Below, one piece after another: positions 31,980 through 54,580 of a stretch of DNA of 64,000 nucleotides; positions within the stretch are counted from its first letter, which is position 1; every line of letters starts with the position of its first letter. The notes under the pieces were generated by a model. It ran no database searches and had not been told where the DNA came from. It worked only from the letters and a program-made list of their open reading frames with translations. Source of the stretch: a virus. The DNA is taken from IMG/VR virus record IMGVR_UViG_3300044641_010298, positions 40,213-104,212 of that record; one strand, 5' to 3'. The translations under genes and the position numbers were made by a program.

Positions 31980-32013
31980 TAAAAAGGCCACCTTTCGGTG
32001 GCCTTTTTATTTT
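31978..32013. terminator. bidirectional intrinsic terminator
   Basis: AATAAAAAGGCCACC-TTTC-GGTGGCCTTTTTATT between convergent genes. Confidence 0.9.
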
Positions 32014-34481: not shown

Positions 34482-36407
34482 TCAGGAATCTCTCCAAAGA
34501 TTATTGGCAGCGAAAGTAATAATCTCTTCTGCTGATTCTGGCGTGTAACCGTAGTCCTTGACCATGGTCTCAACCATCTCAGAGTACTTCTTCTGCTGCT
34601 CATTATCACGGCTCTTGGACTTGGTGACAATCCTCGCTAGATCCTTGACAGTGGCAATCAGATAGCTCTCAATTGCCTCTTTGAGGGGCTCATAGGACTT
34701 ATAATCAACCTTTTGTCCGCGACGAACCTTGGCAAACATGTAAGCCGTGACATCAGCTCGGAATCCATCACGAGAAGATCCGACAATTCCGATCTGCTCC
34801 TCGATTGCCTTCATAAACTTCTCATCAGGCTCTCTCTCCTCGTTTGTCACACGATCCTTGAGCCGCTGCTTTGTGGTGAATGACTCAGCATTGTCGAGGT
34901 AGTTGTCGAAGAGCGACTGTGCCTGTTCCTCGTAGGCGGTGACAAAGGCCTTGGCAATCTCACCCTCAAGGATTTTTAGATATTCCTCGCGAATAAGCTT
35001 CTGCAGAATCTCTAGGTAGTTCTTCTTCTTCTCCTCGTCAATGATCTGCTCCTTCACCTGCTTGATAAGCGCATCGATGACTCGCATGGGAGTGATGAAA
35101 CTCTTATCAGAATCAGTGAGAGCAGAGTCGATTGCCTTGGTGATGAATCGTGTTGAGATTCCGTCCATTCCCTCGTGCTTGGCCTCGTCTCGGAGGTCCT
35201 TGATATCAACCTTCTTGGTGCGACCCTTCTCGACAACTTCTTGGCCATCATAGATCTTCATCTTGGTGAGAAGATCGCACTTCTGAGATGGCTTTAGGCG
35301 GCTCATGACCGAGAACATTGCAGCGACCTTGATGGTGTGCGGAGAGAGATGTGCCTTAAAATCAGATCTACGAAGCATCTTATCGTAAATCTTCATCTCC
35401 TGAGTGAGCTCTAGGACGTATGGGACCTCAATCTTTACGACTCGATCTAGAATTGCCTCGTTCGTATGCTCCGACTTAAATCGATTCCACTCTGACTCAT
35501 TACAGTGTGAGATGATGACTCCATCGAAGTAAAGCATTGCGTTCTTACCAGGAGTCGGAACGTTCTTTTCTTGGGTTGCTGTGATGATGGTATGGAGGAA
35601 CTCGATCTCATTCTTAAAGATCTCAACGAATTCAACCACGCCGCGGTTGCCAACATTGAAGGCACCGTCAAGAGAAAGAACCCGAGGATCATTCTCAGAG
35701 TACTTGTCGAGCTTCGAGATGTCCTCAGAACCGATGAGTGCAGAGACGTCCTGAGAGTTGGCATCCATGGGAGGTACAACAGCAATACCACGACGAGCAC
35801 GCTGTGAAAACCCGCTGCGAACAATTGGGAACTTCTCGTACTCTCCCTTGAAATCCTCCATCAGCCTGTGTCGACAAATTGGACAGAGGTCACCCTCGAT
35901 GTGCACACCAAGCGCCTTCTCAAATTGATCTCTGAGGGCGCGCGGTAGAAGGTGAAGGGGCTCCTCTCGAACTGGGCACCCTTCGAGGTGGTAAACAGGC
36001 TCAGCTGCCTTCTCAAGCGACTTCTTGACAGCATCTGCAAGTGCGCTCTTTCCGGATCCAACTGGTCCCATGAGAAGAAGAACCTGTCGACTCTCCTCGC
36101 CCTTCAGTGACGCAGACTTTAGGAATCTCATGATCTTAGCGATGACTCGCTCATGACCATAAAACTCGTCCTTAAAGTAATTGTAGATCTTGAGCTTGTC
36201 ACCATCGAATAGCTTCTTGCAACGTGGATCTGATTCATCCATTGTTTCGATTCCGTATGTTGCAACTGAATCGAAAAGTCGACGTGCTGAAAGCTTGGAA
36301 ACATCTGGATTCTCCTTTAGGACTTCCAGATAGTCCACCAGCGTTCCTGTCCAGGGCTCCTTCTGGCTCTCTGCTCTTTGCTGCTTAATAAGCTTTAGAA
36401 AATCCAT
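34482..36407 (-). CDS. prkA: PrkA/YeaG AAA+ serine kinase
   Basis: 'LLMGPVGSGKS', 'CPVREEPL', 'GNRGVVEFVEIFK', 'NEAILDR', 'EGMDGISTRF'; start MDFLK with GAGG. Confidence 0.93.
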   Translation of the reverse strand: MDFLKLIKQQRAESQKEPWTGTLVDYLEVLKENPDVSKLSARRLFDSVATYGIETMDESDPRCKKLFDGDKLKIYNYFKDEFYGHERVIAKIMRFLKSASLKGEESRQVLLLMGPVGSGKSALADAVKKSLEKAAEPVYHLEGCPVREEPLHLLPRALRDQFEKALGVHIEGDLCPICRHRLMEDFKGEYEKFPIVRSGFSQRARRGIAVVPPMDANSQDVSALIGSEDISKLDKYSENDPRVLSLDGAFNVGNRGVVEFVEIFKNEIEFLHTIITATQEKNVPTPGKNAMLYFDGVIISHCNESEWNRFKSEHTNEAILDRVVKIEVPYVLELTQEMKIYDKMLRRSDFKAHLSPHTIKVAAMFSVMSRLKPSQKCDLLTKMKIYDGQEVVEKGRTKKVDIKDLRDEAKHEGMDGISTRFITKAIDSALTDSDKSFITPMRVIDALIKQVKEQIIDEEKKKNYLEILQKLIREEYLKILEGEIAKAFVTAYEEQAQSLFDNYLDNAESFTTKQRLKDRVTNEEREPDEKFMKAIEEQIGIVGSSRDGFRADVTAYMFAKVRRGQKVDYKSYEPLKEAIESYLIATVKDLARIVTKSKSRDNEQQKKYSEMVETMVKDYGYTPESAEEIITFAANNLWRDS

Positions 36408-36417
36408 TTTAGACCTC

Positions 36418-37722
36418 TCAGATTTCAAAATATTCGTCCTCGATCTCAGTTACCAGCTTAACTGGACCACCCCAGATCTCGCTGATATTTTTTACGCAAT
36501 TGTCAGCATAGTCAAGCTCAAGATCCCTGCCATCATGTTCGTGAACAAGTATCAAAGTATCCTTCTTGACTTCATCAACGTAAATGATAGGAATGCCATT
36601 GCCACCCACTGAGTTCAGTAGCGTCTGACGACACACCTTCCATCCGTCCTCATCTGACAAATCATCAATTGTCCAGTCTCCGTTCCGCTTCTTTGCTGAG
36701 TAGGTGAAAAGATTAAGCTTCTCACAAATGTCTCGATCCAGATACTGCATGATGAAAGACTCGTCATTGTGGACCTCCCTTGCGATAAAGCACTCCTCGA
36801 TTCCTCTCTCCTCTTCAATTTTCTTGAAGAGCTCAAATCCCAGATGATAAGGGTTGATTGATCCACCCCAGGGTCGAAGAACAAGGTTATGAATTCTGAG
36901 AAATGGAATGTGCATACTGTCAGGTAGCTCAAGCTGATTTAAAGTACGATAGTGCCAAAAACTTGCCCATCCCTCATTCATTACCTTTGTCCTGATCTGT
37001 GGCATGAAGTAGAGAGATTCTCCCCTGATGATCTCAATAATATCTTTCTGCCAAGGCTTAAGGTCTTTACAATTTTCCTGAAGGAATAGTAGAAGATCAT
37101 ATTCAGGTGCTAAAGGATGCTTAATCTGATCAGAATCTTTAAGATTTTTTGTATTCTTACTATCCTTCCAGAAAGATTCAACTAGATCTCTCTCTTCTCT
37201 CCTGAATCTTCCTCTCCTGTCAACCTGATACTGAATACTGTGGCATGAATCTATTAATTTCTCAACTCTTTCTATTCCAATTGAAGGATCTTCAATGTAT
37301 GACTGAATTCTAGATCTTGCGCTTCTAAATCTTGTTGTTACATTGTCAGCATCTGTATCTCTAAAAGTTCTGTTCTTCTTAAAGAAATCAGAATGACCCA
37401 CACAATGAGCCATAATCAGAACCTGAAGATATAGAGGATTCTCAAGCATCAGATATGCAATAGAAGGATTTGAGTTAATGATCAACTCATAAGGCAATCC
37501 CTCAGCTCCTGCATTGTACATGTGATGAGTTCTTTCAAATGACTTTCCATATGACCAGTGAGAAAAGTGAGAAGGCATGCCATGATAAGACATGTTTCCT
37601 ATCATCTCAAAATAATCACATGTCTCATATGCAATCTCATACCAGTCTAGCCCGCTCGCCTTAGAGATTTCGCATATCCTCCGGTCCCAGTCGGCAAGCT
37701 CCTCCATGGTCCAATTAGACAT
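36418..37722 (-). CDS. spoVR: SpoVR/YcgB family protein
   Basis: 'GMPSHFSHWSYGK', 'YELIINSNP', 'AHCVGHSDFFK', 'PQIRTKVMNEGWASFWH', 'NPYHLG'. Confidence 0.95.
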   Translation of the reverse strand: MSNWTMEELADWDRRICEISKASGLDWYEIAYETCDYFEMIGNMSYHGMPSHFSHWSYGKSFERTHHMYNAGAEGLPYELIINSNPSIAYLMLENPLYLQVLIMAHCVGHSDFFKKNRTFRDTDADNVTTRFRSARSRIQSYIEDPSIGIERVEKLIDSCHSIQYQVDRRGRFRREERDLVESFWKDSKNTKNLKDSDQIKHPLAPEYDLLLFLQENCKDLKPWQKDIIEIIRGESLYFMPQIRTKVMNEGWASFWHYRTLNQLELPDSMHIPFLRIHNLVLRPWGGSINPYHLGFELFKKIEEERGIEECFIAREVHNDESFIMQYLDRDICEKLNLFTYSAKKRNGDWTIDDLSDEDGWKVCRQTLLNSVGGNGIPIIYVDEVKKDTLILVHEHDGRDLELDYADNCVKNISEIWGGPVKLVTEIEDEYFEI

Positions 37723-38908: not shown

Positions 38909-39033
38909 AATTACTCCTTAGGACATTAGAATAATACACCAGCATGTTGATTCGTTCTATAGCTACATATTTAGAAATACTAGCAATATTCGTCTCACGG
39001 GCTTTATTTTGGATCACAAGAGGAAAAGAAAAG

Positions 39034-39414
39034 ATGAGAAAAATGATAGTAGAAAAGAGTTGCGCTCAAGACAAAGATTCTGTATCTCTCATCTGCCAAT
39101 TTTGTCTATTTGCTACAGATCATCTTAAAATCGGAGATACAGATTATAAAGTTGTCATTACTGGGGATAAAGAAAAGCACGGAATTAAAACAACGGCATA
39201 TTTCAATCCCCAAACAAATGATCTAGTTATCTTTACAGCTGGCAGACATCCGCACGATATTTGTCGATCAATTGCACACGAGATGGTCCACATGCGTCAA
39301 GGAAAGCACAATTTCTATGGAAAGAAGAATATTAAAGATGTCGGAGGATTCTTTGAGGACGAAGCAAACGCTGTCGCAGGTCAAATTGTAAAGCTTTTTA
39401 TAGCATACAGATGA
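39034..39414 (+). CDS. zincin-like metallopeptidase
   Basis: 'RSIAHEMVHMRQ...EDEAN' HExxH; start uncertain (38944 or 39034). Confidence 0.6.
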   Translation: MRKMIVEKSCAQDKDSVSLICQFCLFATDHLKIGDTDYKVVITGDKEKHGIKTTAYFNPQTNDLVIFTAGRHPHDICRSIAHEMVHMRQGKHNFYGKKNIKDVGGFFEDEANAVAGQIVKLFIAYR

Positions 39415-39416
39415 AA

Positions 39417-39710
39417 CTATCTTCCAAATGCGATAATCTTCCATGCCTCTGGAAGGACTGCAATTCCTTCTTCGTGATCATTATCAAATGTCTCATCCTC
39501 AGCGTCTGTGTGCATTGCTTTACCTTGCGCTGCATCTAGGGCACTATCTGGATCCTCATCTGGAATTACTTCAATTCTAGACTGCGTGCCTACAGAATAT
39601 GAGCCAGGCTCGGCGACATAAGACTCTCTCTTGCCTGTAATCTCACCTTCTAGAAATTTTTTAACTTCCTCTTTGATGATTCTTCGAACCATTTTTTCGG
39701 ATATTATCAT
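39417..39710 (-). CDS. leader-motif protein (MIISEKMVRRIIKEE)
   Basis: 97 aa, acidic; GATATGTAG upstream. Confidence 0.7.
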   Translation of the reverse strand: MIISEKMVRRIIKEEVKKFLEGEITGKRESYVAEPGSYSVGTQSRIEVIPDEDPDSALDAAQGKAMHTDAEDETFDNDHEEGIAVLPEAWKIIAFGR

Positions 39711-39746
39711 TTAAGGCCTCTGTGATTCTACATATCTAGCCTATTG

Positions 39747-40568
39747 TCACTCATCCGGAAAAATCGATGAATCAAGCAATACCAGCCTGCCATCTCTGGC
39801 AATTCCAGTATTTTCACCGTTTATCTCGCTAACCCTGATATTGTACCGACCTAGCGCTCGGATGAATCCAGCAAACGTGGACGAGCTATCTTTGAGATCA
39901 CTGCGGATCGAGAGGAGAGAAATATCAGGATTTTGACTTTTTCTCACAATTTCCCCGCCAGGAAAATAATGTCGCAGGGTATCTTCCTCCCTCAATCTCT
40001 CCTGACGCCTGTCATTGTACCCTCCGAGGAGCACACGAATTAGGGTCGCGTATTCCTCAAGGCCCGTTTCCCCTAGAGATTTTGGATTAGGCAGAAGATC
40101 TGTTCGAAAGAATCGAAAGAAATCCGCCTCACGACGCAGCGGCTCAACTTCCTCCATGACGATCCAGGAGAAATCAGGCGCGTGCTCATATGATCGCGGA
40201 AAAACATCCGTTACGAGATCGTCTTGCCCCATTGTCCAGTCGTCCTGATTCATCTGACCAACATCAAAATCATCTGCTGGAATAGATCTCAGCCTGTCCT
40301 TGGAGATCTTGAGGACACGATTATTTCCAATAGTGAAAGTGACCCGAAAGGAGCCGTCTGCAATGTACTCAACCGGAATCCCGAATTTTTCTCGCAAGGA
40401 TTCAACTTCAGGATCATCAGGTCCAAACATCCACTCACCATGTCGACTAAACATCTCCATGAGAATATCTGAAAGTGCATCCAGGGTGCTTACACTTGTG
40501 ACCGCTTTCTGCTTTATTGAATCTGCAATAACCTCTTGAATTAAAGATTTAAGTAGATTCATCTTCAT
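39747..40568 (-). CDS. protein-kinase-like fold protein with leader motif
   Basis: 'IADGSFRVTF', 'VLKIS', 'WIVMEEV', 'SEINGENTG', 'LVLLD'. Confidence 0.55.
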   Translation of the reverse strand: MKMNLLKSLIQEVIADSIKQKAVTSVSTLDALSDILMEMFSRHGEWMFGPDDPEVESLREKFGIPVEYIADGSFRVTFTIGNNRVLKISKDRLRSIPADDFDVGQMNQDDWTMGQDDLVTDVFPRSYEHAPDFSWIVMEEVEPLRREADFFRFFRTDLLPNPKSLGETGLEEYATLIRVLLGGYNDRRQERLREEDTLRHYFPGGEIVRKSQNPDISLLSIRSDLKDSSSTFAGFIRALGRYNIRVSEINGENTGIARDGRLVLLDSSIFPDE

Positions 40569-41433
40569 CTTTCAGAAGCTCCAAGATCTCGCCCGCCTGA
40601 ATCGCTCCAACAGGTCCAGTTAGCACCATCCCGAGCAATCGCTCAACGAGATCCTCGTCCTCCTCAAATTTGAGGAACTCGGCGACCCTCCCGAAAGAAC
40701 CGTTGATGGTCCGAAGGGCCTCGATCTCCTCAGGGTTGCTCTTGATGATCTCAATCGCATCAAGGTAACCCGCTGAGTACTGCTTGTTCTTCTCATTGTA
40801 CGTGTTTCGGAGCCAGGCACTGATCCGCTCACAGGCGAAATCAAGATCGCTGACCCCTTCAACCCAGCGTTGGCTCTCATTGGACGCTGTACGCTGGATC
40901 TCTTTTCCCATCTCCGGATGCTGCCTGTAGACTGTTGCACCGAGGCTATCGAGGAAGTACTGTGGACTTGCGACAAAGTTGTCCTCAGTGTGGCTCTCGT
41001 AGTACTCCATTACCTTACTGAAGATCGAGATGAGGTGCTCGGCAGCACGACGCTGGTCATCTGCATCCTGATCTTCAATCTTCACGTACTTCCAGCCGCC
41101 GTCAGGATCTTTCACCACACGCCACGCAGCGTCGTCGGCAATCTCCTTGAGGCGCTTGAGACCGGTGCCGGTGATCCAGGTACGGCAGAAGCAGGCGATG
41201 ACGTAAGCGACGTCATCGATGTGGGTGGGATCCTCAACATTTGGCAGCGGCTTCGGTGGGTCTTCCTTCTTTGCAGGCGGTGTCCAGTCCTCCTCGCCAT
41301 CGTCCGCGTCGGAAGCGCCGTCCCAGTCATCTTCGTAATCATCATCATCGACTGCCTCGAGGACCCGCTTCATCTCTTCCTTGATAATGTTTCTAAGTCT
41401 TGTTTCATTGATGAACATAGGATCTTCTCTCAT
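40549..41433 (-). CDS. leader-motif protein with C-terminal GPxGxxQA motif
   Basis: 'INETRLRNIIKEEM'; 'VLTGPVGAIQAGEIL'. Confidence 0.7.
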   Translation of the reverse strand: MREDPMFINETRLRNIIKEEMKRVLEAVDDDDYEDDWDGASDADDGEEDWTPPAKKEDPPKPLPNVEDPTHIDDVAYVIACFCRTWITGTGLKRLKEIADDAAWRVVKDPDGGWKYVKIEDQDADDQRRAAEHLISIFSKVMEYYESHTEDNFVASPQYFLDSLGATVYRQHPEMGKEIQRTASNESQRWVEGVSDLDFACERISAWLRNTYNEKNKQYSAGYLDAIEIIKSNPEEIEALRTINGSFGRVAEFLKFEEDEDLVERLLGMVLTGPVGAIQAGEILELLKDEDEST

Positions 41434-41441
41434 GTCTTTAA

Positions 41442-42146
41442 TTATCCCAGAATATTAATGATCTCATAAGCCTGGATGACGCCATCCGGGCCCGATAGTA
41501 TCATATTTGTCAAATTTTCTTGATATTCTGGATCTATGTTACTAAAATTCACGTCCCTAAAAAAGACAAGTGCTTGCAAATAATTCATGTACAATTCTTT
41601 CATTTCTGGATCTGTTTTGTCAAACACAGATCTGAGCTCTTTAATCTCTGTGGATATAATTTTTTCTCTAGGAAAATCTCCTATTGACATCGATCTAGAT
41701 CTTATCTCAGCCATCTGGTTAAGGACATTATTTATTATTGATGAAATCTTATAGTATTTTCTCATAAATTCATCGCCGAATTTTTGTCTTTCTAGCGCTT
41801 GGAGCCCTGCAAATGTTTCTTCAATTTCTTGTCTTTTTAGACCTGGTGAAACATTTTTAATTACATCATAGAAATCATAGCTTTTGAAAAATGAAGAATT
41901 CACTCTAGAATTCTGTAGCATGTCTCTAAAGCTCTCAACTTCAAGAATTATGTCTGGATTAATGTCTTTGGAATTAGGACTCTCAAGAAAAATCTTGATG
42001 GAATATATGCGAGACTTAATTGTTTCATCTACTCCGAATCTCGCAAGAAGGGCACACATTAGCTGATAATCACTTTCCTGTGCAAGCTCATATGATTCCA
42101 AAAGAATCACACGAATTGCATGACGGATGGAATTTTCTTTTTTCAT
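41442..42146 (-). CDS. leader-motif protein with C-terminal GPxGxxQA motif
   Basis: 'ENSIRHAIRVILLE'; 'ILSGPDGVIQAYEII'. Confidence 0.7.
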   Translation of the reverse strand: MKKENSIRHAIRVILLESYELAQESDYQLMCALLARFGVDETIKSRIYSIKIFLESPNSKDINPDIILEVESFRDMLQNSRVNSSFFKSYDFYDVIKNVSPGLKRQEIEETFAGLQALERQKFGDEFMRKYYKISSIINNVLNQMAEIRSRSMSIGDFPREKIISTEIKELRSVFDKTDPEMKELYMNYLQALVFFRDVNFSNIDPEYQENLTNMILSGPDGVIQAYEIINILG

Positions 42147-42154
42147 GACTTTAA

Positions 42155-42868
42155 TTATTCCAGAACTGATGCAAGCTCTGCAGCCTGCATAAGACCTTCC
42201 GGACCCTCAGCAATAAGTTCGCTGAGCTTCTCTCGATATTCAGCGTCTATATTAGTAGTGTTGACCTTCCTAAATCGAGATGCGCTTCTCATGCAAGACA
42301 CGTAAGTTTCTATTGTTGATCTTGGGATTTTCTGCAATATGAATCTGAGCGAGCGTATATTGCGCTTGGCCCCATCATGAGCGCTGATACCTGCATAGCT
42401 CTCTTGACCCTCAGCAAGCATTCTCAAGTTCCTTGCTAGGCCAGAAATGGGAGTCCTAATGTAGACTTCGTGCTCAAATAAGAAGGAGAAATTCTCATCG
42501 ATCCATACTCTGATCCTTTTCCATATATCATTTCTCGAATCTACATCAGCATAATCGTAAGCTAGTCCTATAACACTGTCAAGATCTCTTCTTCTTGCCA
42601 ACTCAGGGTCAGAGAGGCCAGATTTCAGCGCTTTTCCTACGTTCTCAATGTATTCAATGTCATTTTGGTCAAAAGTTTCTCGAGCGGGGCTTGCCAGGAA
42701 TCTAGAGATTGAATCTGCGAACCTAACAACGTTGCTTCTTTCTTCATCGTTTAGCATTATCGAGCAGATAAAATAAGCATTATCATCTGCTGAAGATGAC
42801 TTATTTTCCTCTGAGTCCTGGATCTGCTCAAAGATGAGCTGCCGAATTAGAGATTCTTTTTTATTCAT
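42155..42868 (-). CDS. leader-motif protein with C-terminal GPxGxxQA motif
   Basis: 'ESLIRQLIFEQI'; 'IAEGPEGLMQAAELA'. Confidence 0.7.
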   Translation of the reverse strand: MNKKESLIRQLIFEQIQDSEENKSSSADDNAYFICSIMLNDEERSNVVRFADSISRFLASPARETFDQNDIEYIENVGKALKSGLSDPELARRRDLDSVIGLAYDYADVDSRNDIWKRIRVWIDENFSFLFEHEVYIRTPISGLARNLRMLAEGQESYAGISAHDGAKRNIRSLRFILQKIPRSTIETYVSCMRSASRFRKVNTTNIDAEYREKLSELIAEGPEGLMQAAELASVLE

Positions 42869-42901
42869 TGCACTTCTCTCTGATCTATTTGTTTGATGGA
42901 T

Positions 42902-43579
42902 TCAAATTATTGAGTAAATTTCCAAAGCCTGCAAGAATCCAGATCCGTCAGGGCCAATGATCTTCATGAGCTGCTGCTTCTTTATTTTTGGGATGTCCTT
43001 CATGTTGCTCGCCATCTCGTACATGGAATCCATCAGCCTAATGGCCTCCTCGAGGTCGTCCCTGTTGATCTTTTGAAGCTTTTCGATATCTGGCTTCATG
43101 CCTCGAGGTGTGTTGTTGTCACGGTTAAACTGGCCTGCGGCCCAGCCATTTGCAAGAGTCCAGAAGATCTGCGGGCTTACATCCTTCGCGACGCTGTCGT
43201 ATAGTTGACCCTTGATCCTTGAGATGAGCTTCTTCGCCCGAACTGGATCGTACCCGAGCGCCTCGATCACCACCTTGGGTGCCTCATCAAGGTCGAAAGG
43301 AAAATCCTCTCCGGATCCCATGGACATGATCCCAAGATCAGCGACCTCCTCAGCCTCCTTCTGAGACAGCATGCTGTCAAGACCGAGCTTGATGAGACGT
43401 TCCCTGTTCTCAGGGGTGAACTTTGCCGACCAGCCCGGTCCAGGATTGATGAGCCTCCGGAAGCAATCGACGTAGAGCTCAGCAGGAACACTCGGCGGAA
43501 GGATGCTCATCACAGTGTATCTCTCGAGCAGAAGTGTCTCACTGATGATGCTACGAATCAAGGCCTCTTGTCTTCTCAT
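42902..43579 (-). CDS. leader-motif protein with C-terminal GPDGSGFLQA motif
   Basis: 'EALIRSIISETLLLE'; 'IIGPDGSGFLQALEI'. Confidence 0.7.
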   Translation of the reverse strand: MRRQEALIRSIISETLLLERYTVMSILPPSVPAELYVDCFRRLINPGPGWSAKFTPENRERLIKLGLDSMLSQKEAEEVADLGIMSMGSGEDFPFDLDEAPKVVIEALGYDPVRAKKLISRIKGQLYDSVAKDVSPQIFWTLANGWAAGQFNRDNNTPRGMKPDIEKLQKINRDDLEEAIRLMDSMYEMASNMKDIPKIKKQQLMKIIGPDGSGFLQALEIYSII

Positions 43580-43706
43580 TGAATCTCCGATAGATTTACA
43601 TATCCCGGAAAGGGATTCGAAAATTTTTTGAAAACCTCAAAAACAAAGAGGGAACTTCCCGTCAGTCAAAAAATCCCAGAAGAACATCCGAGCCTAGCAG
43701 CAAAAA

Positions 43707-44042
43707 TCAAGCCTTTCTGGCAGAAAAAATGATGTCACCCTCACGTGAAAAATCATACGCGATCTTCTTTCCACCATAAGCAGATCTTAGCTTTGACAGG
43801 CGGACAAGGGCGCGCTCAGCTGCCTTCTCGCTAATACCGAGCATTCCTGCAATCATCCAGGGAAAAATGATATTTCCACCCTTGGCGCCGCCCATGCTGT
43901 CGACTATGTCAATTGCCGTCCTAAGAACTTCCTCTTCTACCTCTGTCAGAGGATCAGTGAAGTAGCCATCGTTGGATTCTCTAATCAGAGAAGAAATTTC
44001 ACGTCTTACGATTCGACGAAGATTTGACTCAGATATGTTCAT
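43707..44042 (-). CDS. leader-motif protein, possible winged-HTH
   Basis: 'MNISESNLRRIVRREI'; 'IAGMLGISEKAAERALVRL' HTH-like. Confidence 0.6.
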   Translation of the reverse strand: MNISESNLRRIVRREISSLIRESNDGYFTDPLTEVEEEVLRTAIDIVDSMGGAKGGNIIFPWMIAGMLGISEKAAERALVRLSKLRSAYGGKKIAYDFSREGDIIFSARKA

Positions 44043-44055
44043 GATTTTTTCTCCT

Positions 44056-44928
44056 CTAGTTCACGTCAACGACAAGGATCTTTCCACGAAGATTCTGTCT
44101 CGCCTCGACGGCAGCCTGCTTGATCATTTTTCTAAGCAATTTGAACGCCTCCTGGACCTCCTCGGGTGCGGTCTCGAAAGCTTCAGAAAAAACAAATCCC
44201 TTGCCCGTGATGAGCTCCTGCGTCATCACCTCGGCAAGTGACTCAATATAGGAGCCGAGCTCTCCCTTCCTGGCAGAACCCATCGTTAGATACTTGTCGA
44301 AAGGAACATTAGCGCCCTCATCAATGATAGGAAATAGAGGATCATCAGGGCCCGCATAGTAGGTCTTGCTGCCAAGCTCGATGAAAGTGGGAGAGATCTT
44401 TGAAACCTCCTTGGCCGAATCATCATCCATACCATCAATGTTGAAAAATGCGTGGAAGATCATCCAGGGAGATGCCATGGTCCCACGCTCGGCGCCCGAG
44501 GTCGTATACAGTAAGATCAGATCATCAGGGCCCAGGTCATCAGGAGTTTTCCGATAGCCCATCTTCTGCATCTGTTTGATCTTTCTAGGCGTCAACGTCA
44601 GGACAATACCCCGGTTTGTGACACCATCAGTGAAATCTGTCCCACGTGCGTCAATGTCCTCAATATTTCCGACATAGGGCGCGACAAAGACTCGAAATGG
44701 AAGATGTGCGTAAAGTCGGAGCGCCGTATCTTCAAACTTCTTGCTAAGCGCAAGAGCCGTCGCCGCCCGGGGATTGGGAGAATATTGACCAGTTCCGCCT
44801 GCTTCAAAATCTTTGCTAGGCTTTCTTGAAAAACCAACGCCCAGCCTTCCAGCATAGGGCATCTCATCTAGCTTTCGAGAAAGCTCTTCTCTAATGATCT
44901 GCCTGATCGTGCTCTCTAGTATTCTCAA
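44056..44928 (-). CDS. leader-motif protein
   Basis: 'MRILESTIRQIIREEL'; GATATGTAG upstream. Confidence 0.7.
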   Translation of the reverse strand: MRILESTIRQIIREELSRKLDEMPYAGRLGVGFSRKPSKDFEAGGTGQYSPNPRAATALALSKKFEDTALRLYAHLPFRVFVAPYVGNIEDIDARGTDFTDGVTNRGIVLTLTPRKIKQMQKMGYRKTPDDLGPDDLILLYTTSGAERGTMASPWMIFHAFFNIDGMDDDSAKEVSKISPTFIELGSKTYYAGPDDPLFPIIDEGANVPFDKYLTMGSARKGELGSYIESLAEVMTQELITGKGFVFSEAFETAPEEVQEAFKLLRKMIKQAAVEARQNLRGKILVVDVN

Positions 44929-44960
44929 GTGAAATCCTTGTTAGGGCTACATATCGAGGC

Positions 44961-45277
44961 TCAAAAGTGACCCATTTTTCCCGGGAAATTTTTAGGACCA
45001 CTTTTGATTCCCAAAATTCTCTCGGCCCAGATTTTTGAGCTCGCGCGGGAGCCCTCGGCAGATGATGGGGGCGATGGGCCCTTCGGGTCAAATTTTCTCG
45101 GGAAATTTTCGGGAGATCGCGGGAATGAGGGAAAATCAGCGATCCGGGTGAGAGGGCTGACTTGTTTAAGTCAAAATTTTCCGGGCGGTCGGCGGAGACT
45201 TAGGCGGCCCCGGCGCCCTGCAGGGAGCGCCGGTGGGCTTGGGACCCTGGGGGGCCCGCCCGGGGCGGGCCCCCCAG
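44961..45277. repeat. non-coding boundary element with palindromes and A/T tracts
   Basis: TCAAAAGTG(44961)/CACTTTTGA(45007) around TTTCCCGGGAAA(44977-88); recurring AAATTTT next to CGGG; 15-bp perfect inverted repeat CTGGGGGGCCCGCCC-G-GGGCGGGCCCCCCAG at 45247-45277. Confidence 0.75.
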
Positions 45278-45421
45278 CCCCCTGCCATAGGGCCCCCTGG
45301 GGCGCCCCCTGCCCTGCCAGGGGTAGCCCTGACGCTACACGAGCCCTACCCAGCCCCGGGCAGCAGGGTGGGCAGCGTCCGCCAGAATGCAGGGCTGGGG
45401 GGCAGACTGCCCGGTGGCTAC

Positions 45422-45523
45422 CTACAGCAGGCTGAGGATCCAGGCGCTGATGACCGAGCCGGCAACACCGAGGGCCACCATCGTGACCACCTGGCGGCGT
45501 GTCATGAACCAGTTCCACTCCAT
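45422..45523 (-). CDS. 33-aa membrane peptide
   Basis: MEWNWFMTRRQVVTMVALGVAGSVISAWILSLL; GGAGG SD and cassette promoter upstream. Confidence 0.55.
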   Translation of the reverse strand: MEWNWFMTRRQVVTMVALGVAGSVISAWILSLL

Positions 45524-45576
45524 GTTGCTCCTCCCTACCTGATCATAGTACCACAGCGGGTCGCGGTGACACGCGG

Positions 45577-46365
45577 CTACGGGTTCTTTGGATCCCAGCG
45601 CCTCTGCTCGGGGATCGACTCGGTGTACAGCCGCACCGCTCGGGCAACATCTGTGTGCCCAGCCGACTCTGCCAGCCGCGCGATGGCGTTGCCCTCTCTC
45701 TCTATGATGTCGTTCATCATCTGTGACACCTGGCTGATGTCCTCTGGCATCGTGTTATAGACATCCCTGAGGTAATCAGCTGACACCTGGTAGGCATCGT
45801 CTGTCTTGTCGAGGAAGTCGATTGTGCTGAGGCCGTAGCCGCCCCACTTGATCATCTTGAAGGCTCCCTCGATGACAGTGCCGGCGCGGATCTCCACCAT
45901 GTCCATGAGCGCGCCGACATAGCCCAGGATTGACATGCCCATGAAGAAGATGGAGATGTGGTAGGCGGTCTCGTAGGCTTCTAGCACGGTGGCTCGCTGC
46001 GCCGGGTCCAGCCTCTCCTGCTGCGCGAGCGCATCCTCGTACCTCTTCTTCGCCAGCGAGAACTGGACGACAGAGGTGAGCAGCGCTGTTGTGTCAAATA
46101 TGAACCCAGTGTACCTCAGGTTCCCCTGGATGAAGTTGGTGACGAAGCCGAACAGGTCGTTGATCGCGCTGATCGACTGGAGGCTGTCCTCCATGTCTTG
46201 AGTGTCTAGCATCTGCAGCACATCAGCGTGAGAGGCTGCGACCGTGGCTGCTGGGTTCTTGTGTGCTAGCCGCCCGGTGTCTGGCTCGAAGGTCCCGAGC
46301 TCAGCCTCTCTCAGCAGCTCTCTCACCGCCTCTCGAAGCAGGCGGCCCTGTGTCGTCACGCTCAT
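45577..46365 (-). CDS. leader-motif protein with hydrophobic segments
   Basis: 262 aa; 'RLLREAVRELLRE'; GATATGTAG upstream. Confidence 0.65.
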   Translation of the reverse strand: MSVTTQGRLLREAVRELLREAELGTFEPDTGRLAHKNPAATVAASHADVLQMLDTQDMEDSLQSISAINDLFGFVTNFIQGNLRYTGFIFDTTALLTSVVQFSLAKKRYEDALAQQERLDPAQRATVLEAYETAYHISIFFMGMSILGYVGALMDMVEIRAGTVIEGAFKMIKWGGYGLSTIDFLDKTDDAYQVSADYLRDVYNTMPEDISQVSQMMNDIIEREGNAIARLAESAGHTDVARAVRLYTESIPEQRRWDPKNP

Positions 46366-46403
46366 CGTGTAGCCCCATGTTGAGGCTACATATCACCCGC
46401 CGA

Positions 46404-46727
46404 TCAGCTGTGGACCAGGGCCTTGCACATCCGGGCGATCGCCACCCGACCACCGCGGCCGATCAGCAGGTCCGGGTCGTGCCCCTCGGTCACGGACAGG
46501 GTGGCCTCGGGGACACCGTGGCCGACGGGCTTCGGCATCCGGGGGAGGAGCCCGTTCCAGTTCACCTTGAACCGGGTCGGGTACCGGGGATCCATGCGGT
46601 CGGTGGCCACGAACTTGTGCTCCTGGCCTTCGGGGCCGACCGCGATCCCGCTGACCGCGGTGGTGCCCAGGGGGGAGACCGTGACGGAGGTGATCTTGAA
46701 GGTCCAGCGGAGGTTGGCGGTGGCCAT
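46404..46727 (-). CDS. cassette protein family A, paralog of 57596..57928
   Basis: shares 'HKFVATDRMDPRYPTRFKVNWNGL.PRMPKPVGHGV'. Confidence 0.85.
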   Translation of the reverse strand: MATANLRWTFKITSVTVSPLGTTAVSGIAVGPEGQEHKFVATDRMDPRYPTRFKVNWNGLLPRMPKPVGHGVPEATLSVTEGHDPDLLIGRGGRVAIARMCKALVHS

Positions 46728-46796
46728 GTTGTCGTCCTTGGTTTGGGGTCCGTTAGCTCAGACATCATACCATTCAACGCCTGAGGCGCACGGGCC

Positions 46797-46916
46797 TCAG
46801 TTGAGGCAGTTGATCAGCGGGCAGATCCCGGAGAGGTAGACGAGGGCCGCGACATTGGCGACGAAGAGGGACCCAGCGATCGAGACGGTGCCCCAGATGA
46901 CGGTGTCGGTGGTCAT
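46797..46916 (-). CDS. 39-aa membrane peptide
   Basis: MTTDTVIWGTVSIAGSLFVANVAALVYLSGICPLINCLN; AAGGAGG SD. Confidence 0.65.
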   Translation of the reverse strand: MTTDTVIWGTVSIAGSLFVANVAALVYLSGICPLINCLN

Positions 46917-46933
46917 TTGATTCCTCCTTCCTG

Positions 46934-46952
46934 GGCGGTGTCCATCACCGCC
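46934..46952 (-). promoter_or_regulatory. AUGGA-loop leader hairpin (copy 1 of 6)
   Basis: GGCGGUG-AUGGA-CACCGCC upstream of SD. Confidence 0.7.
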
Positions 46953-46998
46953 TCCTTGCCAGATCATCATACCATTCAGCGGTCAGCCCGCACGGGCT

Positions 46999-47208
46999 TC
47001 AGTGGTTGGCGATCCGGTTCGCCGCGGTCCGGTCGAGGTCCCAGCCCTTCTGCTGGACCGTCTGGTGGCTCGTGTCGACCAGGTCCTTCACCTCACCGCC
47101 CACCGTCCGGACAGTGAAGTTGCGGCCCGCAACCTCGATCACCTCAGCCGCCATCCACTCACCTCGGATCCGAACCACCAGGCTCTCACCAATCAGGGGA
47201 TTGACCAT
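46999..47208 (-). CDS. small SH3/Tudor-like cassette protein
   Basis: 69 aa; AAGGAGG SD; 'GESLVVRIRGEWMAAEV'. Confidence 0.7.
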   Translation of the reverse strand: MVNPLIGESLVVRIRGEWMAAEVIEVAGRNFTVRTVGGEVKDLVDTSHQTVQQKGWDLDRTAANRIANH

Positions 47209-47261
47209 GTTGCCTCCTTGTGATCCTATTCTACCACCGCGACCCTGCCCCGCACGGGCCG

Positions 47262-47543
47262 TCAGCCGACCATGAAGGCCGCCATCGGGACCCGCAGCGG
47301 GCGGCAGGCCGTCACCTCGGCCACCCAGGCCTCGTGCTTCGCCTCGGCCTCCGCCTCGAGCCGGGCCCGCTCACGCCACTCATCCTCGAGGTCCCGGGTC
47401 GCCGCCTCCCAGCCCTCCGCCGTGTCGTCCTCCGGGCGGTACCACCGCGGCTTGATGTTGTGGACCGCCTTGAAGGCGTCGACGAAGTTGTAGAAGGCCT
47501 CGACCTGGGCGTGGGTGGCGAAGGAGGCGGTGTTGATGGCCAT
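47262..47543 (-). CDS. cassette hypothetical protein
   Basis: 93 aa; 'DAFKAVHNIKPR'; own promoter. Confidence 0.75.
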   Translation of the reverse strand: MAINTASFATHAQVEAFYNFVDAFKAVHNIKPRWYRPEDDTAEGWEAATRDLEDEWRERARLEAEAEAKHEAWVAEVTACRPLRVPMAAFMVG

Positions 47544-47611
47544 GTTTGACTCCGTTCTCTGAGGTTGCCTAGCTCTGTTATTCTACCAACGGGTCCCAGG
47601 GACGCACGGGC

Positions 47612-47824
47612 CTACGTGAATCTTGAGCGGCGCCTTGCATCGATGTAGGCATCACCGGAGTCTTCAGCATCGCCAAACATTGGCTGAAACCGCTTGCTGT
47701 AGTGAGATCGGGTCGCTGTCTCGTCTTCCTCAGGCTCCCGCCAGGTCTCAGGGTCTTGATCGGGATCAGGCTTTCGTAGCTCTTCTCTGATGATGTGTCG
47801 AAGCTGGCGCTCGGTGATCCTCAC
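47612..47824 (-). CDS. leader-motif protein (MRITERQLRHIIREEL)
   Basis: 70 aa; GATATGTAG upstream. Confidence 0.75.
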   Translation of the reverse strand: MRITERQLRHIIREELRKPDPDQDPETWREPEEDETATRSHYSKRFQPMFGDAEDSGDAYIDARRRSRFT

Positions 47825-47920
47825 ATGTGCCCCTAGATGGGTCTACATATCGCCCTGGGCCAACAGCGACAACATCGCACAGACACAAGTCAGGCCCCAG
47901 TGACGGGGCCCGAGGTGGTG

Positions 47921-48301
47921 TTAGCGCGAGCGCTTGATTTGCAAGCCGTGCGGAACTCTTCCCGCCTCTATGCGGCTCTGGATCTCACCGGCTGGTAGAT
48001 CCAAGAATTCATCCGGATCGTCGCCGTACTCGTACTCATCCTCGTCTGGCTCATCGAGGTCGAGATTTGAAAACATGTCATCAAACTTCTTGCCAAAGTC
48101 AGGGTCAGTGAGCTTGGGTCGCCTGAACATTGTGGGCTCTCTCATCTTGCGGGCGGTCTCTGCACCCGGGCCAGAGAAGTCATCCATCCCAGACTCCTCG
48201 TAATCGCCTGTCTCTGGGTTCTTGCGGAATGTAACGCCCTTCCTCATCTCATTCAGCTCCTCGCGGACTATCCGGCGAAGCTGGCCCTCAGTGATCCTCA
48301 T
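47921..48301 (-). CDS. leader-motif protein (MRITEGQLRRIVREEL)
   Basis: 126 aa, acidic; GATATGTAG upstream. Confidence 0.8.
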   Translation of the reverse strand: MRITEGQLRRIVREELNEMRKGVTFRKNPETGDYEESGMDDFSGPGAETARKMREPTMFRRPKLTDPDFGKKFDDMFSNLDLDEPDEDEYEYGDDPDEFLDLPAGEIQSRIEAGRVPHGLQIKRSR

Positions 48302-48459
48302 GATGTGCCTCCTGTGATTCTACATATCGCCCCGCTCACCCAGTGCAGGATCAATGTTGCGCAGCGCCAGATCGCGCCCCTTGCATCAGGATCTCGGCGC
48401 CGTGATGCACATCGGGCGCCCCCAGACCGCATCTCCTGCAGCCTGTGGCGCCCTAGTGA

Positions 48460-48777
48460 TTAAGCCTTTGAACGCTTCCAGGCCATGTAGGCTGCCCTTC
48501 CCTCTTCAGCTGATCCGAAGTCCTGTCCGTGAGAAGGATGCGAAGATGGGAACTTGAGGCCGTAACGGAACTCATAATCAGCCTCTGACTCACCGGGACC
48601 GTCGTCGTCAACTCCGTAGTTCATCTCAGCGCTGCGGTCGTAGTCATATCCGCTGCTGTACCCGCCGCCGTAATAGCCGCTACCACCGTATTTGCTCCCG
48701 CCGCGGCGGTAGGTCTCTGTCATCCTGCTGATCTCTTCCTTGATGATCTTTCTCAACTGCGATGCTGTGATTCTCAT
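48460..48777 (-). CDS. leader-motif protein (MRITASQLRKIIKEEI), Gly/Tyr-rich
   Basis: 105 aa; GATAAGTAC upstream. Confidence 0.8.
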   Translation of the reverse strand: MRITASQLRKIIKEEISRMTETYRRGGSKYGGSGYYGGGYSSGYDYDRSAEMNYGVDDDGPGESEADYEFRYGLKFPSSHPSHGQDFGSAEEGRAAYMAWKRSKA

Positions 48778-48894
48778 GTGATCCTCTTGGTGTCTGTACT
48801 TATCACCATCCGTAGAACTTTAGCAGCGTTGTGAACACAACATTCCAGAACAGGATCAGCGTTGCCTTCAACAGGGTATCGAGGACCCAGAGCT

Positions 48895-53087: not shown

Positions 53088-53471
53088 TTACGGGGCCGCC
53101 TCGAGCCCGAAGAAGCCGTCGTCACCGAGGACGAGGTCGAGCTTCGCCATCATCGCCGCGGCCTCGCCGCTGACCACCTCCTCGGCCGTCAGGACCGGGA
53201 CCACGACCGGCGCCGCTTCGACCACCTTCCGGGGCCGCTTGAGGACCGCCTCCGGGAGGGTCATGCCCGCCGCCTTCACCGCGGCCTTCGCACGATGGCC
53301 GATCGAGACCCGGGTCCCGCGGTCGAAGTCACCGCCGGTCACGTGCATGAGCATCTTCGAACCCCAGCGAAGAGGGGATGCGACAAACACTTCACCATCA
53401 GCAATCCCGTGGACCACGATGTTTCCGTCCTCAAGAACCACAGATTCGATAGAGATGTTCTTTGAAGCCAT
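53088..53471 (-). CDS. cassette protein family B
   Basis: 'LRWGSKMLMHVTGGDFDRGTRVSIGH'; start MASKN at 53471. Confidence 0.85.
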   Translation of the reverse strand: MASKNISIESVVLEDGNIVVHGIADGEVFVASPLRWGSKMLMHVTGGDFDRGTRVSIGHRAKAAVKAAGMTLPEAVLKRPRKVVEAAPVVVPVLTAEEVVSGEAAAMMAKLDLVLGDDGFFGLEAAP

Positions 53472-53581
53472 GTTTAACTCCTTGGTTGATTGCTGTTTGT
53501 TTCCGCCAGGATATTTTACCACTCATCTCAATGTTCGCACGAGAATCGATACATGAGAGAAGTTGTCGCCATACTTAGACT

Positions 53582-53672
53582 AGACCCCTGGTGAGTTAGT
53601 TCTCTTCTCCGGCAGAGAACTTCTGCGACAAACGATTTGTTCGCAACTCAGTATCAACCAGGGGTCTTTTTT
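53582..53672 (+). ncRNA. putative cloverleaf antisense/leader RNA (P4 CI / P1 c4-like architecture)
   Basis: P1 AGACCCCTGGT/ACCAGGGGTCT plus U-run, P2 GAGTT/AACTC, P3 AGTTCTCT/AGAGAACT, P4 GCGACAAA/TTTGT.CGC; loop and bulge complementary to 53704-53724. Confidence 0.55.
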
Positions 53673-53729
53673 GTCAGAAGAGAATATATAGAAACATCGA
53701 GGATTGATACTCCTCGTCCGGAGAGAAAC

Positions 53730-54392
53730 ATGACCAAAGCAATATACGCAGAGTGCATGTATTGTGGGAAGCCACACAGAAAGAAATCAGCAAGCCCACG
53801 ATGTTCCAAGTGCAAATACCTCGACCCTGATTTTAGGAAGAAAGTTTCAGATGGTCTCAAACAAAGCCTCAACAATCCTGAGACAAGAAAGTCAAGATCA
53901 GAGAAAGCAAAGCGAATGTGGTCTGATGAATCATACAGAGAAAAACAAGCTGAATCATATTCCTCCAGAAAAGACGAAGAATATCGATCCAAGCAATCGA
54001 TTTCAAATAGCTCTATTTGGTCAAGCCTAGAGCTTCGAGAAAGACAATCAAAAATGGCAAAAGAAAGATGGGACAATCCTGATTACAGGAGCAAATTTCT
54101 TGAAACAGTCAGGGAAGAAGAATACAGAAAGAGAAAATCTCTCTCGCTGGGCGGAGATGGTGACTTAAGTAGAATCGAAAATGATCAATCATCTGCGCTC
54201 AAGCAGTGGTCAAAGAAAGTAAAAACAAGAGACAACCATCAATGCCAGCACTGCGGATCAGTGAATGATTTGCATGCTCATCACGTCAAGCGAAAAGCAA
54301 TGTTTCCTGATCTGGCCCTTGAGATTACCAATGGAATCACGCTCTGCTCATTGTGCCATGCACAAGAGCACAGAAAGCTGAACAATCAGTAG
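53730..54392 (+). mobile_element. free-standing HNH homing endonuclease with NUMOD3-like repeats
   Basis: C-terminal 'CQHCG...LHAHH...NGITLCSLCH...H'; repeats 'RSEKAKRMWSDESYR', 'QSKMAKERWDNPDYR'; AT-rich and opposite strand to flanks. Confidence 0.85.
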
Positions 54393-54580
54393 ACAACGAC
54401 TTTAATTATCTGGTCGTCGTAGCCCCAGCACCACTCGCCGGGGCGGACCATGCCGTCGAAGCCGGGCCGGCCGTTCTTGATGTCCGATTCCTTGGACTCG
54501 ACCTCGACCGTGCGGACCTCGCCGCCAAAGGCGCGGTACTTGATGATGGAGCCGACGCGGTAGTTGTGCTGCTTGTTCAT
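54386..54580 (-). CDS. SH3-like cassette protein
   Basis: 64 aa; 'IKNGRPGFDG...WGYDDQI'; AAGGAGG SD. Confidence 0.75.
   Translation of the reverse strand: MNKQHNYRVGSIIKYRAFGGEVRTVEVESKESDIKNGRPGFDGMVRPGEWCWGYDDQIIKVVVY

Follow-up and report, generated by a model that had tools for sequence, protein, structure and literature searches.

A Y-shaped, terminator-ended RNA at the 5' end of a mobile HNH cassette of a freshwater giant phage: a candidate RNA control unit for the nuclease gene

Homing endonucleases must be expressed strongly enough to spread and weakly enough to spare their carrier. Several described systems bear on how this balance could be struck by RNA. The CI RNA of phage P4 is a small branched RNA with two unpaired segments that pair with downstream boxes, and the mature forms of both c4 and CI are, as far as known, released by processing (by RNase P in the case of C4). 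HEARO RNAs accompany proteins of the IscB type, which combine RuvC and HNH domains in about 400–500 amino acids. The c4 RNA of P1, in the account given in PMC8198154 (citing Citron and Schuster, 1990), is a branched RNA whose gene precedes its target within one operon, and its two unpaired segments are matched by two downstream boxes, one of them over the ribosome-binding site (RBS). For homing endonuclease genes of the T4 family, late promoters, terminators, and RBS-masking RNA structures keep expression low (PMC2988022). RBS-masking leader hairpins are described for I-TevI/II/III, segB, and Aeh1 mobE, and terminators for mobE, segF, and segD, the latter gene being antisense to its neighbors and flanked by terminators (PMC2988022).

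The locus considered here lies in a window of 64,000 nt, the whole stretch of DNA analysed, which is part of a 104-kb IMG/VR virus contig. CheckV assigns this contig a completeness of 32%, indicating a very large phage; it carries T4-like baseplate and PhoH genes, and matching sequencing runs come from lakes and drinking water (16 studies). The phage is a freshwater giant phage of the lytic type. No close isolate was found, the best protein match being a PrkA-like kinase of Thermus phages (33%). This 648-aa PrkA/YeaG-like serine kinase, encoded at 34482–36428 on the minus strand, has ~33% identity to its counterparts in Thermus phages TMA and phiYS40 and in uncultured phages of 630 kb, and is the sole informative tie to isolated phages. 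Terminator and promoter usage at the locus would depend on the host. Nearly all genes of the window are on the minus strand, and around the locus small genes form an array in which every gene has a copy of a repeated promoter.

Composition, empty sites, and junction comparison delimit an inserted free-standing HNH cassette within this array, at 53546–54410 on the plus strand (edges within a few nucleotides), i.e., antisense to the surrounding genes. Its size is ~860 bp and its GC content is about 40–45% vs. about 60% in the backbone. It contains a Y-shaped RNA (Y-RNA), a 62-nt leader, and the HNH gene; the left edge is ~25 nt before the ATACTTA motif discussed below. The backbone gene left of the insertion (53088–53471, minus strand) is 79% identical in a related phage, L004. 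The backbone gene to the right (54386–54580, minus strand) has its last ~6 codons and stop re-supplied by the right end of the cassette. The array promoter of the next gene (53513–53544, minus strand), consisting of a CGTGCG box, a spacer, and TGGTAAAAT, is kept just outside the cassette, as seen in an alignment made by eye with the L004 site. In L004 a 68-nt gap that contains the array promoter, and no cassette, separates the two flanking genes, and one contig of sequencing run X19 has the same empty site, with homology to the window breaking at 54405. Presence/absence polymorphism at one site between conserved genes is therefore observed twice, in a relative and in a lake population, and the suggestion of an earlier note on this DNA that the RNA travels with the HNH gene is borne out, both being part of one inserted cassette. 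Judged from the sequence, the anatomy of 53546–54410 is that of a free-standing homing endonuclease cassette, and the 3' end of gene 54386–54580 is likely to be its homing target.

The HNH gene itself (53730–54392, plus strand) encodes an endonuclease of 220 aa, identified by PF01844 (E-value 2e-8) and by PHROG HNH families. The protein has an N-terminal Cys4 finger, repeated basic helices, and a C-terminal HNH motif. The reading frame is intact, the H, N, and H columns are invariant and common to 23 homologs, and the same homologs agree with the start codon ATG at 53730. All four SNPs found in the gene in lake populations are synonymous, at third positions, so the gene is maintained by purifying selection. 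The closest homolog, P0002 from Logan, is 48% identical and has the same C-terminus; 98%-identical cluster members also exist. The nearest relatives whose DNA context was examined (L006, L007, and L092) are 32–42% identical.

The backbone right of the cassette, at 54413–54533, is hypervariable among lake populations, with 13 SNP positions in ~120 nt. For comparison, the cassette has 4 SNPs in ~860 nt and the left flank 1 in ~250 nt. The SNP-rich segment may be a tract of co-conversion or recombination beside the homing site. An autorepression operator of the I-TevI type was considered and rejected, the 5' region of the cassette having no similarity to the empty homing site.

The segment 53582–53667 (plus strand) folds into a Y-shaped RNA built around a three-way junction. 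The minimum-free-energy structure coincides with the centroid, and its energy of −38.5 kcal/mol compares with −20.4 ± 3.1 kcal/mol in dinucleotide shuffles (z −5.9; none of 200 shuffles was as good). The closing stem comprises 11 bp, all Watson–Crick (53582–53592 with 53657–53667), and is extended by 4 bp (53593–96 with 53646–49). Hairpin 1 (53598–53621) has an 8-bp stem and an 8-nt loop at 53606–13; hairpin 2 is situated at 53624–53645. The 3' side of the structure has an asymmetric bulge of 7–8 nt (53650–53657) with unpaired probabilities of 0.8–0.99 except for its last base. The fold is unchanged inside a longer transcript (200-nt contexts). Since all pairs are Watson–Crick, they do not tell the strand; the T6 tract following the stem is present on the plus strand only. 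The coordinates and letters of the earlier note proved correct, as did its description of 53582–53667 as an 11-bp closing stem with a U-run and two inner hairpins. The label "cloverleaf" has to be replaced, as a three-way junction with two inner hairpins is a Y.

Database comparisons place this RNA outside the described families. A cmscan search detected nothing relevant in Rfam at E ≤ 10 (3 kb and 191 nt around the element), nor at the gathering score in the whole window. The comparison with c4, c4-2, and HEARO proposed in the earlier note thus returned no match even at E ≤ 10 on 191 nt, and neither did the covariance model of the int-alpA motif (RF02996) at E ≤ 10. By these models, the element is a member of neither c4, HEARO, nor int-alpA. 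ARAGORN found no tRNA or tmRNA in the element. A possible hammerhead-like core was dismissed after inspection by eye, Rfam being silent. The position of a structured RNA directly upstream of an HNH-containing gene recalls HEARO and the omega RNA of IscB, but the protein here has 220 aa and PF01844 only, with no RuvC domain, and Rfam gives no match.

The Y-RNA is preceded by ATACTTA (53571–53577, plus strand), located 5 nt before the closing stem. This sequence fits the late-type motif ATAnTTA of the phage, a class strongly enriched before genes. On the minus strand of the 104-kb contig the motif has 16 sites, 11 of which fall in the ~5% of non-coding DNA and 10 of which are located 5–21 nt upstream of a gene start. 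Several sites are exactly 5 nt before ATG, implying leaderless messages that start 6 nt past the motif. By analogy, the predicted start of the Y-RNA is at about G53583, the second position of the closing stem. The earlier note had called 53571–77 late-like, and the motif indeed belongs to the phage's own gene-preceding class and is placed to start an RNA at the stem base. A short HNH mRNA might also start from ATATATA (53684–53690, plus strand), a weak promoter-like sequence; this second candidate is doubtful, being an ATAnATA variant with no clear gene association elsewhere in the genome. A sigma-70-like promoter on the minus strand inside the element was rejected as within chance expectation.

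Directly after the GC-rich closing stem there is a T6 tract (53667–53672, plus strand), an intrinsic-terminator signal. Strong signals of this kind, a stem plus a T-run, number just two in the 104-kb contig. The other one (31985–32004), near the PhoH-like gene, has T-runs on both strands and is probably a bidirectional terminator between convergent units. The Y-RNA has a GC-rich stem of 10–11 bp immediately followed by a U tract, as intrinsic terminators do; the stem is not that of a simple hairpin with a short loop, as it encloses 64 nt with two hairpins, and a consensus terminator scan did not list it. Such long inserts do occur. A search of IMG/VR with the closing-stem pattern produced a single match, an unrelated gene-end terminator of a GC-rich phage (L172:8404–8484), whose closing stem has identical letters and encloses a 55-nt insert with an inner hairpin. 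It is located directly after a stop codon and ahead of a canonical TTGACA/TATAAT promoter. A promoter motif, paired ends, and a U-tail give the element the look of a stable ~90-nt RNA gene, and equally that of a strongly attenuating leader. A contig from the RNA library X19 covers 53244–53888; DNA carry-over or minus-strand transcripts are possible sources of it, and contigs show neither ends nor strand, so that it counts neither for nor against a ~90-nt species.

These features also fit a simpler reading, in which the element is a plain attenuating or insulating terminator that blocks entry into the nuclease gene, and its loop and bulge have no function in pairing. We consider this quite possible, if doubtful. 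The stem with its T6 tract, the L172 terminator, and the T4 precedents, with terminators around segD and inside mobE and segF (PMC2988022), all agree with it. Like segD, the HNH gene is antisense to its neighbors. In such a case, the hairpin just before the Shine–Dalgarno (SD) sequence would be a stabilizer of the mRNA 5' end or a minus-strand terminator, and hairpin 53698–53716 does also score as terminator-like on the minus strand. On the other hand, there would be little reason to have a promoter directly ahead of a terminator if neither the RNA nor the attenuation were itself the product, and the complementarities described next are left to coincidence.

The loop of hairpin 1 (53606–53613) has the features of an anti-SD segment: 7 nt of it (53606–12; unpaired probability ~1.0) are complementary to CCGGAGA at 53718–53724. 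The latter segment holds the SD sequence GGAGA, 5 nt before the ATG at 53730, and is unpaired with a probability of 0.6–0.9 in the transcript folded alone. The bulge (53650–57) is complementary over 8 nt to 53704–11, a segment in the 7-nt loop (unpaired probability ~0.9) of the 6-bp hairpin at 53698–53716, just before the SD. Both complementarities, described in the earlier note, were confirmed. The order of the two matches is colinear and antiparallel. In separate folds all four segments are open, with unpaired probabilities mostly of 0.6–1.0; the last base of each complementary segment of the element is paired in the local fold. A further complementarity of 9 nt (53600–08 with 53676–84), which the earlier note does not mention, involves a closed stem and a segment past the terminator, with an opening cost of 8.6 kcal/mol, and other complementarities of similar length are present around the element. 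The earlier note had also called the element riboswitch-like, a description not sustained by any sign of ligand sensing. Riboswitch-like switching was rejected, since no alternative pairing competes with the closing stem and the 9-nt match lies after the terminator.

The two contacts differ in calculated strength. For the loop and the SD region, a duplex energy of −11.3 kcal/mol and opening costs of 1.6 (loop) and 0.4–0.9 kcal/mol (target) sum to a net of about −9 kcal/mol, which in this energy model may be judged ample for an sRNA seed. For the bulge, the duplex contributes −7.1 kcal/mol and opening of the bulge costs 2.8 kcal/mol, the net being only about −2.5 kcal/mol once opening is counted, so this contact is predicted to be weak. 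The arrangement differs from that of T4 leaders, where the RBS is inside a local hairpin. Here neither the SD nor the start codon is in a stable local hairpin, as hairpin 53698–53716 ends 1 nt before the SD region; the SD is locally open (0.6–0.9), and masking would be exerted only by long-range or trans contacts of the loop.

When the 65-nt leader was subjected to dinucleotide shuffling, a loop match of at least 7 nt appeared in 1.5% of shuffles, a bulge match of at least 8 nt in 0.16%, and both at 7 nt or longer in 0.025%. Within the window, the two matches occur together in no further stretch of 65 nt. Under a looser null, with colinear matches of at least 7 and at least 8 nt between any parts of a 90-nt stretch and the next 65 nt, ~1% of genome windows qualify, as do 2 of 143 other HNH loci; this generic frequency favors a terminator whose matches are functionless. 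The significance comes from the positions of the matches and not from their mere existence: in the element they occupy two large open segments, and in the leader they fall on the SD and an exposed loop. Matches of 7 nt to the translation initiation region (anti-TIR matches) are common when taken alone (22/143 HNH loci), and pairing of upstream DNA with the start region is at chance level across the 143 non-redundant loci, for which start calls are crude. Such a signal is thus not family-wide, again as a plain terminator would have it. It speaks against a plain terminator that the fold has only two large open segments and that these are where the two matches are found, hitting the SD and an exposed loop (joint probability ~2.5e-4).

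We tentatively propose, with a confidence somewhat short of even, that the 5' end of the mobile HNH cassette is an RNA control unit with a late-promoter start, a Y-RNA, termination, and masking of the HNH RBS by loop and bulge. Among the observations that support it are the dual match of exactly the two largest open segments (p about 2.5e-4) and the presence of the RNA and the HNH gene in one low-GC insertion that is absent from relatives. It also agrees with the restraint of T4-family endonuclease genes by late promoters, terminators, and RBS-masking structures (PMC2988022). The minimal late-type promoter ATACTTA would start a transcript at the base of the long closing stem, and the transcript would fold into the Y. 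The T6 tract after the stem would stop most polymerases, yielding a stable ~90-nt RNA with paired 5' and 3' ends. The HNH message would be carried by the few read-through transcripts, and by any that start at the weak second promoter. The open anti-SD loop and the open bulge could then pair with the SD region and with the loop of the preceding hairpin. Such pairing might take place within a read-through transcript (in cis) or be made by the terminated RNA acting in trans, and it would block ribosome entry. Termination and translational masking together would hold a potentially genome-damaging nuclease at a trace level late in infection. Most likely, then, the element is a terminator-ended leader or sRNA that throttles the nuclease, c4/CI-like in its action and not a member of that family. 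The claim is based on anatomy and statistics.

The resemblance to the C4 family (Rfam C4/c4-2/c4-a1b1), proposed in the earlier note, is confined to layout. Two open segments (7 + 8 nt) face two downstream boxes, one of which is over the RBS, in the bipartite colinear order of P1 c4; this part of the comparison stands, whereas membership in the family does not, in view of the absent covariance-model match. The element would end at an intrinsic terminator rather than, as far as known for c4 and CI, by processing. The genomic setting differs as well: C4 RNAs are located in immunity or antirepressor operons of temperate phages and plasmids, whereas here the neighbor is an HNH gene in a giant phage with a T4-like baseplate. 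To restrain such nucleases, T4-like phages are known to rely on local hairpins, the timing of promoters, and terminators; if the control unit is real, a dedicated sRNA traveling with the nuclease would add an antisense layer so far known from temperate-phage immunity (c4, CI).

A more specific form of the proposal is that the HNH cassette has its own promoter-to-terminator sRNA gene, whose product silences the HNH message through two exposed segments in the c4 manner, both in cis and in trans; it would have arisen independently, with no sequence kinship to c4/CI or any Rfam family. We regard this full version as rather unlikely. If true, a resident copy would also silence incoming copies, i.e., the RNA would be a portable brake or an immunity device of a selfish nuclease.

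The right edge of the cassette bears a late-type motif of its own, ATAATTA (54403–54409, minus strand), located within the cassette-supplied last codons of the flanking gene and pointing antisense through the HNH gene. Together with the following five bases it forms a 12-mer (54403–54414, minus strand) identical to the promoter motif and leader of the leaderless gene at 42152. The leaderless-gene site at 41439, also with an ATAATTA motif, shares 11 of the 12 bases. Possible readings of the 12-mer are a promoter embedded here that serves downstream genes, an origin of antisense RNA, and flanking sequence that was dragged along with the cassette.

If the flanks were indeed dragged along, the Y-RNA could be passenger DNA, namely, the terminator of a donor neighbor gene that was carried with the endonuclease and has no role here. 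Its GC content, as low as that of the HNH gene, and the rarity of other terminators in this phage fit such an origin, as does the identity of the right-edge 12-mer to a promoter and leader elsewhere in the phage. Ahead of the element there is, however, no coding remnant, and the promoter motif begins only ~25 nt inside the cassette edge. The element has no changes in four populations, though the same is true for the left flank, and passenger status would leave the complementarity to the HNH start region without explanation. We consider passenger origin improbable.

The right-edge motif bears on another possibility, namely, a stand-alone sRNA with a different target. The cassette is antisense in a heavily transcribed array and the motif at 54403–09 points through it, so a fully complementary minus-strand RNA is likely to be made. 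The Y-RNA might neutralize such read-through or antisense transcripts, or have a host or phage message as its target; in either case its main partner would not be the HNH start. Its promoter-to-terminator build with paired ends and a U-tail would suit such a role. Yet sequences complementary to the loop are no commoner in the rest of the window than expected (~14 sites vs. ~16), and the HNH leader is the only place with both matches, so that a principal target other than the HNH start seems to us a poor prospect.

Homologs of the element were sought by several routes. A blastn search of the Y-RNA against phage records gave no match, and exact patterns of the element yielded no homolog in IMG/VR. 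Applied to 84 metagenome and 82 viral HNH loci (166 in all), a single-sequence covariance model gave no match, and on the 104-kb contig it recovered only the element itself. In Logan contigs from four lake populations, the segment 53390–53761 is invariant, which leaves no covariation there.

The leaders of related nuclease genes vary. The closest full-length HNH relative in IMG/VR (L092) has no such RNA and carries a motif of the GATATGTAG/ATAAGTA class 5 nt before its ATG. Two further HNH genes of this family (L007:1790–1850 and L006:1865–1925), likewise located in promoter arrays of a similar kind, come after a late-type ATATTTA motif. In both, a long leader helix after ATATTTA encloses the SD and the start codon (part of the L006 sequence reads N), and the GTG/ATG difference in the start codon between L006 and L007 is compensated in the opposite (5') arm. 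The loop of an inner hairpin in L007 bears a 9-nt anti-SD, a possible pseudoknot or switch in the modeled structure. RNA control is thus present in this HNH family and is not uniform, the element of the window being an orphan.

The motif found before the L092 gene recurs in the phage itself. At 38964–48797 on the minus strand, GATATGTAG or ATAAGTA precedes at least eight genes, ~17–22 nt from their starts, and it has the appearance of a promoter class in its own right within this phage lineage.
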